A DNA stretch of 64,000 nucleotides from an uncultured Clostridia bacterium (GCA_947073045.1 CAMTJU010000006.1:2159-66158), one strand, 5' to 3'. Positions 13,084-18,805 are shown, numbered from the stretch's first letter. Translations and numbers: made by a program. The notes: generated by a model not told the origin, from the letters alone.

Positions 13084-14241
13084 ATGAATATTGGAATATT
13101 TACGGATACATATTATCCGCACGTAAATGGTGTTGCAACTTCAATAAAGATGTTGGAGGAGCAATTAAGAAAACGTGGTCATAATGTCTATATTTTTACA
13201 ACATCAAATCCATTGGTTAAAGAGCCAAATTCAAATGTATTTAGATTACCGAGCATGCCGTTTGTTTTTTTACCGACTTACCGCATTGCTTTTTTTTATT
13301 CCCCAAAATTATTGTTTAAAATGAAAAAATTTAATCTTGATATTATACATACCCAAACTGAATTTTCAATCGGTATATTTGGAAAAATAGCCTCGGAATT
13401 TTTAAAAATTCCAGTGGTTCATACTTATCATACAATGTATGAAGATTATGTTCATTACATAGCAAAAGGACACTTAATTTCACCTAAGATGGCTCAAAGG
13501 TTTAGCAGAATTTTTTGCAACAGAGCTAAGATAGTAATTGCGCCTACACAAAAAACAAAAGATTCATTATTAAATTATGGAGTTAAAAGGCCAATAGAAA
13601 TTGTGCCGACGGGTATAACTCTTGAAAAATTTTTAAAAGATGCAGACAATAATCAAATAAGTGCAATAAAAAATGAATTGCACATAAACCAAAATGATTT
13701 TGTAATTTTATTTTTGGGACGCGTTGCTAAAGAAAAAAGTATTGACGTTTTAATTTCTCAAATGCCTGATATTTTGAATAAAATTTCCAATGCAAAATTG
13801 TTAATTGTCGGAGACGGTCCATATGTTAATGTATTAAAAAATTTAGCAGATGAACTTAAAGTTTCAAATTCAATAATTTTCAGTGGACAGGTTGCTTGGG
13901 AAAATATTAATTTGTATTATAAATTGGCGGATGTTTTTGTAACTGCTTCTACTTCTGAAACGCAGGGACTTACATATATTGAGGCAATGGCTTCAAAAAT
14001 TCCTGTTATTGCGAAAAATGATGGTAGTATAAAAAATTTGATTGAGGACAAAAAAAATGGCTATGTATTCGATAATCCAAATGAATTACCAAATATCATA
14101 GCCAAAATAAAAAATAATCCCGATGAAAAACTCAAAATTATTGATTGCGCTATTGATAAAATAAAAGATTTGTCAGCTGAAAAATTTGCTGAATCTGTTG
14201 AAAAAATTTATCTCTCACTTATAAAACACGACGTGCGGTAA
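13084..14241 (+). CDS. GT4-family glycosyltransferase (diacylglycerol glycosyltransferase-like)
   Basis: MNIGIFTDTYYPHVNGVATS ... ETQGLTYIEAMA (E-x7-E region); 385 aa. Confidence 0.8.
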   Translation: MNIGIFTDTYYPHVNGVATSIKMLEEQLRKRGHNVYIFTTSNPLVKEPNSNVFRLPSMPFVFLPTYRIAFFYSPKLLFKMKKFNLDIIHTQTEFSIGIFGKIASEFLKIPVVHTYHTMYEDYVHYIAKGHLISPKMAQRFSRIFCNRAKIVIAPTQKTKDSLLNYGVKRPIEIVPTGITLEKFLKDADNNQISAIKNELHINQNDFVILFLGRVAKEKSIDVLISQMPDILNKISNAKLLIVGDGPYVNVLKNLADELKVSNSIIFSGQVAWENINLYYKLADVFVTASTSETQGLTYIEAMASKIPVIAKNDGSIKNLIEDKKNGYVFDNPNELPNIIAKIKNNPDEKLKIIDCAIDKIKDLSAEKFAESVEKIYLSLIKHDVR

Positions 14242-14335
14242 TATAATTTTGCATATAATAACTTTCACTCAAATTGCTTATCATAACACCTTTATTGTTT
14301 GTACTTGCTGAATGAATAAATTGTCCGTTTTCAAA
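13913..14335. repeat. direct repeat copy A of the GT4 3' end / NlpC-P60 3' end junction
   Basis: Aligns by eye with 18457-18805 at high but imperfect identity; copy B has one 75-bp in-frame deletion. Confidence 0.8.
14219..14335 (-). pseudogene. relic of the 3' end of the NlpC/P60 gene (last ~38 codons)
   Basis: The minus strand encodes ..FENGQFIHSASTNNKGVMISNLSESYYMQNYITARRVL*, against GNGQFIHSASPNNKGVMISSLNESYYVQNYITARRVL* at the end of 18688-19773. No upstream part of the gene is present. Confidence 0.7.
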
Positions 14336-14534
14336 TAGAATTAAATATTCCGATACCAATCAGTACAAAAATTTATGCAGACGAAAGTGGTATTGTTATA
14401 AATGTAGGAATAATAAACAGTTATGTCTAAACAGTAATAATAGAGTACGGTGGCGGATTAAGTTATCTTTGTAAATAAAAAAAATGGCAGAAATCATCTG
14501 TCATTTTTTAATAATAATTTTGAGGAGAAATTTT

Positions 14535-15815
14535 ATGATAGACATAAAAAAATATTTTGCGGATTTCACTAATATACCAAAGTATCCGTCGCTTGACACT
14601 ATGAAATATTTTTGCGATAGATACGGAAATTTTGAAAAGCAAATGAAATTTTTACATATAGCAGGAACAAATGGAAAAGGAAGTTGCTGCGAAATCCTCA
14701 GTAAAATTTTAATCAATCAAGGCTATAAAGTTGGGAAATTTATGTCTCCGCATTTAATAAAATATAACGAACGCATAAGTATTAACAATGTTAACATTTC
14801 TGATTTGGATTTCTCAAATTTAATCGAAGAACTACAGCCCGAAATTATTTCTTATCCAAAAAAAGTAACTTTGTTCGAAATCGAAACAATTATTGCTTTG
14901 CTATATTTTTATCGAAATAATATTGATTTTATAATATTAGAAACAGGTTTGGGTGGATTATATGACAGCACAAATATTATTAGCCGGCCACTGATTTCGA
15001 TAATAACTTCTATATCATACGACCACACCGATATTTTAGGTAAAACGCTTAAAGAAATTGCACTACAAAAATCTGGCATAATTAAAAAAAATTCACATAC
15101 CGTATTTTTTTCACAATCAACAGAAATTAATAATGTTATTAAAAATAAATGTGCAATTGAAAATAATACTTTGCATTTGATAACTGAAAATCAAATCAAA
15201 AATTACAGTTTCGACGAAAATTTTCAATACTTTGATTATGATGATATGAAAGAAATTGCACTTAATCTAAAAGGTAAAAGCCAAATTAAAAATGTGTGTC
15301 TTTGTCTTGAGTGCATGAAAATATTAAATCAGCTCAGTTTCCAAATTTCTGAAATAAATATTAAAAGCGCTCTAGCAAATGTTATTCACAAAGGTCGAAT
15401 GGAAATTTTACATAAAAATCCGCTGATTATATTTGATGGCGCACATAATCCTGATGCAATTAAAAATTTACTTGCTACTATCGATATGTATTATAAAAAT
15501 TTTAAACGGCAATATGTAATTTCAATTTTGCGTCAAAAAGATTATGAGTCAATTATAAAAATTCTACTTTCAGATCAATATGCAACTTTTATATTAACTG
15601 ATGGTAATGATGAAAAAATTTATACACCTGCTAAAAAATTATTTTTTGTCGCGCAAAAATATAAATCCAAAAATCAAATTATATGTATAAAAAAATTAGA
15701 TGATGCCATTGATTTCATCACACAAAATAAAAACGATTCGATTAATTTCATAATTGGAAGTTTTTATGTTTACAACTCCGTGATAAATAAATTGCAAAAT
15801 CAAATTTATATATAA
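14535..15815 (+). CDS. folC: folylpolyglutamate synthase / dihydrofolate synthase
   Basis: HIAGTNGKGS P-loop, Mur-ligase layout. Start taken at ATG 14535 after GAGGAG; the track ORF opens at 14484. Confidence 0.85.
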   Translation: MIDIKKYFADFTNIPKYPSLDTMKYFCDRYGNFEKQMKFLHIAGTNGKGSCCEILSKILINQGYKVGKFMSPHLIKYNERISINNVNISDLDFSNLIEELQPEIISYPKKVTLFEIETIIALLYFYRNNIDFIILETGLGGLYDSTNIISRPLISIITSISYDHTDILGKTLKEIALQKSGIIKKNSHTVFFSQSTEINNVIKNKCAIENNTLHLITENQIKNYSFDENFQYFDYDDMKEIALNLKGKSQIKNVCLCLECMKILNQLSFQISEINIKSALANVIHKGRMEILHKNPLIIFDGAHNPDAIKNLLATIDMYYKNFKRQYVISILRQKDYESIIKILLSDQYATFILTDGNDEKIYTPAKKLFFVAQKYKSKNQIICIKKLDDAIDFITQNKNDSINFIIGSFYVYNSVINKLQNQIYI

Positions 15816-15894
15816 TATTCAATATTGTATTCAATATTTTTTTTAGTAAAATAATAATATAAGAGCTGTAGACCTCGAATGAGGAAGTGACATT

Positions 15895-18098: not shown

Positions 18099-18205
18099 AT
18101 TATATCTTGCAATTTTATTTATTTGCTTAAAGATTTTATGTTGAAAGGGCAATATTGAAGAAGAAAGTGAAAAAACAGATAATTTTATTTCATTATTTAA
18201 ATTTT

Positions 18206-18496
18206 TTAACGGAAAAAATGATAATAGAAAAATTTTAATAGATAATTTAGTATTCCGGATTTGATTGAAAAAATCATATCCGATTTTATTATGTCATGAT
18301 TATGGAATGTAATTGTCTTAAATTCATGGTATTGCAAAGCAATTGAATACCCAGTTGCATAGATAAATTTTTTTTCATATCCATTAATTTTTATAAAATT
18401 TCTTGTTGCCAAATCTATATCACAAAATTTTGTTCTAATTCTAAATTTATTCTTGATTTGTATTATAAATTGGGGATGTTTTTGTAACTGCGTCAA
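18206..18496 (-). CDS. hypothetical ORF, possibly a truncated gene fragment (tentatively GNAT-like C-terminus)
   Basis: The ORF's start codon lies inside repeat copy B, so its 5' part is not native. ATRNFIKINGYEKKF loosely resembles the GNAT C-terminal motif. Weak call. Confidence 0.25.
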   Translation of the reverse strand: MTQLQKHPQFIIQIKNKFRIRTKFCDIDLATRNFIKINGYEKKFIYATGYSIALQYHEFKTITFHNHDIIKSDMIFSIKSGILNYLLKFFYYHFFR

Positions 18497-18692
18497 CTTC
18501 CGAAACGCAGGGGCTTACATATATTGAGGCAATGGCTTCAAAAATTCCTGTTATTGCGAAAAATGATGGTAGTATAAAATATTTGATTGAGGACAAAAAA
18601 AATGGCTATGTATTCGATAATCCAAATGAATTACCAAATATCATAGCCAAAATAAAAAATAATACCGATGAAAAATTAAAAATTCACTTATA
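18457..18692 (+). pseudogene. relic of the GT4 glycosyltransferase 3' end
   Basis: Encodes ..DVFVTASTSETQGLTYIEAMASKIPVIAKNDGSIKYLIEDKKNGYVFDNPNELPNIIAKIKNNTDEKLKIHL*, matching residues of 13084-14241. It has no 5' part and a 75-bp deletion. Confidence 0.75.
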
Positions 18693-18805
18693 AAACACGA
18701 CGCGCAGTAATATAATTTTGCACATAATAACTTTCGTTCAAACTGCTTATCATAACGCCTTTATTGTTTGGGCTTGCTGAATGAATAAATTGTCCGTTTC
18801 CAATA
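18457..18805. repeat. direct repeat copy B of the GT4 / NlpC-P60 junction
   Basis: See 13913-14335. Confidence 0.8.

Follow-up and report, generated by a model that had tools for sequence, protein, structure and literature searches.

How an apparently essential gene comes to lie inside an unstable-looking repeat structure is the question raised by a locus of an uncultured gut Clostridia bacterium. The locus lies in a stretch of 64,000 nucleotides (GCA_947073045.1, CAMTJU010000006.1:2159-66158), called the window here, on contig C6 of a metagenome-assembled genome (MAG) of 1.17 Mb in 36 contigs (G000). The window is AT-rich, with about 23-37% G+C per 2-kb interval. At this locus, an island carrying folC, the gene for folylpolyglutamate/dihydrofolate synthase, and several gene remnants is bracketed by direct repeats of the convergent junction between a GT4 glycosyltransferase gene and an NlpC/P60 cell-wall hydrolase gene (P60). 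A sequence-only reading of the window had described this bracketing, took it to suggest a recurrent homology-driven mechanism, and found the position of folC puzzling. The reading preferred here, with a probability of about two in three, is that a random chromosomal fragment from a donor resembling g4, a sister genus within the same family, was joined illegitimately to the GT4/P60 junction, that about 431 bp of the target was duplicated, and that the imported folC displaced the native gene.

The direct repeat is real, and a repeat search together with pairwise alignment now places its copies at 13907-14337 (copy A) and 18453-18807 (copy B). A search of the whole 1.17-Mb genome finds exactly these two copies. 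Between them there are 18 substitutions, two 1-bp indels, and one 76-bp deletion, and exact runs of 66 and 83 bp are left. The GT4-only part of 230 bp has 8 of the substitutions and one 1-bp indel (BLAST identity 95.7% over 233 bp), and the 118-bp part that contains the P60 end has the other 10 (88.7% over 133 bp). The deleted bases correspond to 14140-14215 of copy A, and their loss from copy B reduces the start-to-start spacing from 4545 to 4469. This deletion had been taken as 75 bp and in frame; bookkeeping of the alignment gives 76 bp, so that the GT4 stub is frameshifted and acquires the end listed in the table. Copy A comprises the end of the whole GT4 gene and a stub of P60, whereas copy B comprises the end of the whole P60 gene and a stub of GT4, an assignment that open reading frames (ORFs), Pfam, and tblastn uphold. 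The final ~110 codons of the intact GT4 fall within copy A, and the final ~38 codons of the intact P60 fall within copy B. At window position 14119, copy A has C in G000 but A, the copy B state, in the same-species assemblies L043 and L044, where the exact run is thereby extended to 95 bp; gene conversion between the copies could account for this, as could an ordinary polymorphism.

The nearest lineage found (L049, ERZ1052165 scaffold_49) has the junction in a simple form. Its GT4 (382 aa), which follows tyrS, and its P60 (358 aa) overlap by 6 bp, both gene ends are full-length, and there is neither an island nor a duplication of the junction. The tyrS and P60 proteins of this lineage are 86% and 75% identical to those of G000, compared to 80% and 64% for g4. 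In other lineages, GT4 or P60 is found in different contexts. Comparison with this empty site shows that the island was inserted, and bears out the earlier proposal of an insertion into a once-contiguous convergent junction that was duplicated in the process. The same lineage serves as the outgroup for polarising the differences between the copies. The P60 stub has the derived base at 7 of 9 polarisable sites, and 8 of the 10 differences in the P60 part are changes from GC to AT going from copy B to copy A. The GT4 stub in copy B holds the derived base at all four sites that are informative with this outgroup. Most derived changes therefore sit in the stubs, which have decayed.

The DNA between the copies is explained by the folC locus of g4, a genus represented by two genomes, G003 and G005. 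G003 is the best same-family relative used for comparison, and in it the genes concerned occupy three loci: trmB-chrA-tyrS-GT4 followed by metG, P60 between thrS and acpS, and folC apart from both. The folC locus has the order ftsE-ftsX-M23-folC-giant ORF (3043 aa)-small ORF-M24 (opposite strand)-second giant ORF. It is the same in G005, and the island is collinear with G003 C4 and G005 C12. The remains that had been listed as smaller debris are thus not a miscellany; they are what is left of the cargo of a single foreign fragment of chromosome, which came from a g4-like donor and follows its gene order. The intact folC is confirmed by its family model. The fragment tentatively assigned to an M23 peptidase is a true M23 relic by its DNA match to g4; it begins ~290 nt before the 3′ end of the gene, is interrupted by a stop, and is missing 153 bp that g4 has. 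The minus-strand ORF at 18206-18496 matches the M24 family (Pfam PF00557, E 5.7e-8), and its peptidase relic forms the right end of the foreign fragment. A scan of the island for promoters and terminators gives counts no higher than in shuffled sequence.

The interrupted coding region of the earlier reading is a decayed orphan giant gene of >3000 aa, with large internal deletions and stops. An alternative genetic code (table 4) was considered for this region and is unneeded, since the region is a decayed giant gene. Longer ORF calls made at this place on small public contigs, whose DNA differs from the window by only two single-nucleotide polymorphisms, most likely reflect another code used by the gene caller. 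In g4, two paralogous giant orphan genes lie around an M24 peptidase (G003 C4:16998-26126 and 4007-14964). The first encodes 3043 aa and the second >3000 aa with runs of N inside; neither has a Pfam domain, and no family was matched when the giant proteins were searched against Pfam. The first giant protein is only 72% identical between the two g4 species, whereas the products of neighbouring genes are 94-100% identical.

The island is closer to g4 than the rest of the genome is. Its DNA identity to g4 is 77-88% overall, whereas non-island matches are at 66-81% over the first 40 kb of the window, one short tRNA-like stretch excepted. When G000 is compared to 83 kb of G003, the other matches are 65-86% identical and the long orthologous blocks 70-81%. 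Synonymous difference (pS, Nei-Gojobori) was obtained for 37 orthologue pairs of G000 and g4, namely folC and 36 others. It is 0.35 for folC and 0.50-0.78 for the other genes (mean 0.627, standard deviation 0.054), which places folC at z = -5.1; for scale, folC has a pS of 0.19 between the two g4 species. The island folC is 88% identical to that of g4 in amino acids and 87.6% in DNA. Among 5.8 billion proteins, its homologues are 98% identical within its own species group, then 89% and 87% (both g4), and then 61%. GT4 homologues show no such drop, with 79, 79, and 77% followed by 68% and below. In the folC tree, the island gene groups with the g4 sequences with support of 89/91, drawn as an open fork.

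The relics point the same way as folC. G000 also has an intact M23 gene after ftsEX on contig C11 and an intact M24 gene on contig C13, and these are 73-74% identical to their g4 counterparts. Over the same 138 columns, the M23 relic is 78% identical to g4 and 63% to the intact M23 of G000; over 209 columns, the M24 relic is 79-80% identical to g4 and 62% to the intact M24. The relics are nearer to g4 than to the genome's own intact copies, and therefore branched from the g4 side. This establishes both the foreign origin of the island and the direction of transfer, from a g4-like donor to this lineage. A vertical origin, in which the island is left over from the lineage's own folC locus after a move or duplication inside the genome and nothing was transferred horizontally, could draw on the fact that folC lies within ~8 kb of TauE and OTU genes both here and in g4, and on the other segmental duplications of the genome. 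The low pS of folC (0.35 versus 0.63 genome-wide), the relic identities (78-80% to g4 and 62-63% to the own copies, when the functional M23 and M24 reach 73-74% to g4), and the empty site in the nearest lineage make such an origin highly improbable.

The imported folC is also the only one. A tblastn search of all 36 contigs with four divergent FolC proteins finds the island gene alone, and the same contigs contain no relic of a native folC detectable by tblastn. As there is no second folC and no relic, the imported gene has displaced the native one, and the island folC is a xenolog that replaces the native copy. Its divergence and its tree are discordant with the rest of the genome, it is the sole functional copy in this draft MAG, and its location is not ancestral. 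In none of the family relatives examined (g2, g3, and g4) was folC found between GT4 and P60; it lies elsewhere in each. This answers the puzzle of an essential gene inside such a structure. Since folC is now necessary, the island is kept despite exact repeats of 66 and 83 bp, and the necessity of the replacement copy pins an island that looks unstable. The concept of xenologous gene displacement reportedly goes back to Koonin, Makarova and Aravind in 2001. The present case resembles it in having a single folC that groups with another genus, lies at a non-native site, and has no detectable native counterpart. It differs in that the donor belongs to a sister genus of the same family, and in that the event is young, with truncated donor neighbours and insertion scars that are still readable.

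The joints were resolved by three-way alignment. At the left joint (14335-14343), P60 codon ~323 meets M23 codon ~287, and at the right joint (18446-18456), M24 codon ~255 meets GT4 codon ~275. Each joint has only 1-5 nt that are common to donor and target, and both breakpoints lie inside donor genes. Such joints, with no extended homology and with arbitrary breakpoints in the donor, are those of an illegitimate integration. The claim that the insertion was homology-driven is accordingly not sustained, and an illegitimate join is the simpler reading.

A repeat search finds no significant terminal inverted repeats at the ends of the island, and no transposase or integrase family is matched by Pfam among the proteins scanned, which include the island ORFs. 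The structure shares with transposon or insertion sequence (IS) insertions a direct target duplication on both sides. In contrast, the duplicated segment measures 431 bp, where such elements give 2-14 bp, inverted repeats and a transposase match are lacking, and the island ends inside donor housekeeping genes. Integrase-borne islands, integrative and conjugative elements, and prophages do not fit either: there is no integrase ORF, the cargo consists of donor housekeeping genes, and the repeats are coding ends, an assessment made without a dedicated tRNA scan.

The proposed course of events begins with a linear piece of chromosome from a g4 relative that would have entered an ancestor of this lineage. 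This piece would have run from inside M23, via folC and the giant orphan gene, to inside M24; in today's g4 these breakpoints are ~12 kb apart. Both of its ends would then have joined the overlapping tails of GT4 and P60 by illegitimate recombination at the level of microhomology, at points ~431 bp apart on the target. The likeliest partners for the ends were the two sister copies of the target at a replication fork, or else staggered breaks. With joins 431 bp apart, the target segment is duplicated, so that a complete GT4 remains to the left of the insert and a complete P60 to its right, each beside the stub of the other. Because the two genes overlap, an insertion with no duplication would truncate one of them, and the survival of this form is probably due to selection. 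The imported folC would have taken over from the native gene and in this way shielded the island from repeat-mediated loss. The other cargo, that is, the M23 end, the M24 end, and most of the giant gene, would have decayed in the window strain.

A single event is preferred since the insert lies exactly at the boundary of copy A and copy B; we infer both this one-step insertion with duplication and the route by which the DNA entered. ComEC and DprA are intact in G000, and uptake of free DNA is a possible entry route. Hulter and Wackernagel (2008, Mol Microbiol 67:984, a work cited in PMC8116780) reportedly observed, in laboratory Acinetobacter, that foreign DNA can be integrated by double illegitimate recombination during natural transformation. 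Their system is similar in that a fragment with no flanking homology is integrated with a few shared bases at both ends and with breakpoints in mid-gene, and the uptake genes comEC and dprA are present here as well. The present case differs from theirs: it is natural and fixed, it includes a target duplication of 431 bp, and transformation is a putative route. A literature search on illegitimate integration with target duplication brought up no precedent beyond the Hulter and Wackernagel work.

The same product could arise by a Campbell-type route, in which ~430 bp of the recipient's GT4/P60 junction, perhaps from lysed siblings whose DNA was taken up at the same time, would first have been ligated to the foreign fragment; the product would have been circularised and then integrated by one homologous crossover. 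A single crossover of such a circle gives exactly what is seen, namely an insert with a complete direct repeat abutting each end, and this is the sole version in which the term homology-driven would hold. The other lineage-specific bracketing repeats of the genome would fit a recurrent recombination route of this kind. Against it, two illegitimate ligations and a crossover are needed, compared to two joins in the one-step model, and no replicon, plasmid, or circle is seen. GT4 does not lie beside P60 in the g4 genomes, and the junction cannot therefore have come from the donor. The 4.5-kb "loop" contigs that might suggest a circle are explained by assembly breaks inside the exact run of 83-95 bp. 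When compared to typical Campbell-type integration, the island is alike in being bracketed by direct repeats of a chromosomal segment of several hundred bp, and unlike in having no replicon or vector and in repeating recipient DNA that is not beside the cargo in the donor genus. This route is regarded as unlikely, though it is the strongest of the alternatives.

It is also conceivable that the junction was first duplicated in tandem, as a neutral event of ~430 bp, and that foreign DNA entered later at the joint between the two stubs. A duplicated junction would offer a safe landing site. Even so, a random hit within ~300 bp of dispensable stub would usually split one of the copies, and the insert is found exactly at their boundary; a bare tandem duplication was not found in any relative searched. 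The structure as it stands is not a plain tandem duplication, since 4.1 kb of g4-like DNA separates the copies. Two separate steps are therefore considered improbable, and the illegitimate insertion with simultaneous duplication is retained.

Another alternative is that the repeats or the island are an assembly artefact, misjoined from reads of two co-occurring organisms. In its favour, two public MAGs, GCA_948605555.1 and GCA_948494435.1, have contigs that join GT4 directly to P60, and in several assemblies the island is a separate contig of ~4.5 kb. These contigs break or switch exactly inside the exact run that is common to the copies, which is what repeat collapse produces. Three independent assemblies read from the unique flank through the repeat into the island: ERZ13641590 bridges the whole structure, ERZ13641600 covers the left side, and ERZ27269718 covers the right side. 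The joins are thus reproduced, and the repeats are not the assembly artefact that the sequence-only reading had named as a danger. In addition, the copies differ by 18 substitutions and the 76-bp deletion, and its truncation and decay set the cargo apart from an intact g4 genome. An assembly artefact or a chimeric MAG is regarded as highly improbable.

The two direct joins (L040, contig CAPELQ010000011.1 of GCA_948605555.1 at 10001-11065, and L041 in GCA_948494435.1) were considered as evidence of the pre-insertion state or of excision, and rejected as such. Their GT4 has the derived, deletion-bearing end of copy B, the switch lies inside the exact run, and the join encodes a chimeric GT4 of 354 aa. 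The MAG with the direct join also holds the island as a separate contig that spans window positions 14062-18580. These joins are most likely artefacts of repeat collapse, although excision in vivo would look alike. On this reading, the adjacency of GT4 and P60 in public MAGs of the species is false, as is the chimeric 354-aa GT4.

The age of the insertion can be bracketed with a sister lineage (L052; Logan contigs from SRR133852xx (SRR13385246)), whose folC has a pS of 0.06 to that of the window. It has the same left joint, the P60 stub, the M23 relic with the same internal deletion, and folC. The insertion is therefore older than the split between the two. Four changes in the P60 stub are common to the sister lineage and about four are private to the window strain, which makes the insertion roughly twice as old as the split. 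Downstream of folC, the sister lineage has a giant ORF that is open over at least 2375 aa (L052 1618-8742), and the giant gene thus died later, in the window strain. The only P60-bearing contig of this lineage ends 39 bp beyond the gene.

Several observations weigh against the preferred reading or complicate it. The 5′ part of the giant-gene relic in the window resembles the second giant paralogue of G003, whereas the gene of the sister lineage is like the first. Similarity between the window and L052 ends abruptly at 15914 and resumes at 81% DNA identity over 17773-18249. The first part of the L052 giant ORF has only ~25% protein identity to the window relic, when folC itself is ~2% diverged. 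These unlike 5′ parts require at least one further recombination at the locus, and the giant gene is a mosaic that has been exchanged again since the insertion. The best donor match still has a folC pS of 0.35 (G003 and G005), and no near-identical donor locus was found, so the g4-like donor is an unsampled relative. G000 is a draft, and a native folC may yet lie in an assembly gap. Furthermore, folC is close to TauE and OTU genes in both genera, ~4-5 kb away in g4 and ~5-8 kb here (from the island to the orthologues), which may be accidental (a chance of roughly 2%) or may point to a more complicated history. Lastly, sequence alone cannot separate the one-step model from a circle crossover or a prior tandem duplication.

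The stretches compared for the OTU-like gene and TauE are window 23632-27610 and G003 C4:31935-35999. A homology-facilitated integration anchored on these genes was considered and judged implausible, as their identity is only ~74%.

The processes at this locus are known ones, of which it is a new and well-documented case; its target duplication is unusually long. It provides a readable natural record of ordinary chromosomal DNA that crossed between genera with no mobile element. The empty site, both illegitimate joints, the size of the duplication, the donor gene order, and the later decay of the cargo can be read directly, and the locus explains how an apparently essential gene can occupy such a structure.

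The sequence-only reading had also linked the island to an OTU cassette as bearing the same insertion signature. The cassette is bracketed by repeats at 27596-27790 and 29884-30085, which by eye are roughly 70% identical over ~180 bp and in an alignment have a mean column identity of 80% over 279 columns. The gene inside and the large OTU-like gene next to it are diverged paralogues. The cassette has the same bracketing signature as the folC island, but is older and has local cargo. The likeness of the signatures therefore stands, and a shared dedicated mechanism is unproven. A further repeat pair lies at 24542-24685 and 28716-28859.

Comparison of the genome with itself reveals more direct repeats, of 76-83% identity, that bracket segments of 1-5 kb. 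They are found in G000 at C5:1287-1424 / 5616-5756, C11:178-331 / 5704-5852, and C21:10207-10446 / 11542-11779. The pair on C5 brackets a V-ATPase-like ORF, recognised by translation, and an acidic orphan gene of 1101 aa. The three pairs may be further scars of insertion with duplication. From these, a broader reading can be framed, in which this very compact genome would repeatedly acquire DNA, from foreign chromosomes or by copying its own genes, through insertions that duplicate a convergent junction; template switching linked to replication could operate where genes meet tail to tail. Both the folC island and the OTU cassette, which lie 13 kb apart, would be cases of it, and the pairs on C5, C11, and C21 would be candidates. 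The selected cargo would then perhaps have been the fast-evolving giant orphan gene, which a sister lineage still has intact, with folC hitch-hiking and displacing the native copy afterwards. This broader reading is doubtful, and a single illegitimate insertion remains the preferred account of the folC island.

Table. Features of the folC island and its flanks in the window, with the segments that match the sister genus g4.
Feature	Position	Strand	Basis
GT4 glycosyltransferase, intact, 385 aa	13084..14241	+	Pfam PF00534, PF13439
Repeat copy A (GT4 3′ end and P60 3′ end, duplicated target)	13907/13910-14337	.	Repeat search and pairwise alignment
P60 stub, final ~36-38 codons of NlpC/P60, non-functional	14219..14334	-	tblastn, 83% to P60 residues 322-361
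M23 peptidase relic, left end of the foreign fragment	14338..14475	+	81-82% DNA identity to M23 of G003/G005
Segment matching the inside of g4 M23	14341-14463		81-82% DNA identity
Segment matching g4 M23 end, folC, and giant gene start	14461-15902		87.6-88.4% DNA identity
folC, folylpolyglutamate/dihydrofolate synthase, intact, 426 aa	14535..15815	+	TIGR01499, 330 bits (cut-off 163)
Orphan giant gene, decayed relic	15883..18252	+	Collinear with residues ~8-1380 of the G003 giant gene (3043 aa)
Segment matching g4 giant gene	15944-17656		77-86% DNA identity
M24 Xaa-Pro aminopeptidase relic, ~codons 255-320, right end of the foreign fragment	18251..18445	-	84.5-85% DNA identity to g4
Segment matching g4 M24 codons ~260-320	18251-18431		84.5-85% DNA identity
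Repeat copy B (same junction, with 76-bp deletion)	18453/18456-18807	.	Repeat search and pairwise alignment
GT4 stub, ~codons 281-352, frameshifted end ...KLKIHL*, non-functional	18469..18693	+	ORF reading
NlpC/P60 cell-wall hydrolase with SH3 domains, intact, 361 aa	18688..19773	-	Pfam PF00877, PF08239

The intact GT4 is 77% identical in amino acids to that of G003 and belongs to the conserved trmB-chrA-tyrS-GT4 block. Mobile elements exist in G000 but play no part at the folC island. Decayed copies resembling an IS3-type transposase, 80-88% identical, are found at C4:37965-39327, 46563-47393, and 62996-63614, and at C13:15782-17063, 21748-22593, and 36495-36890.

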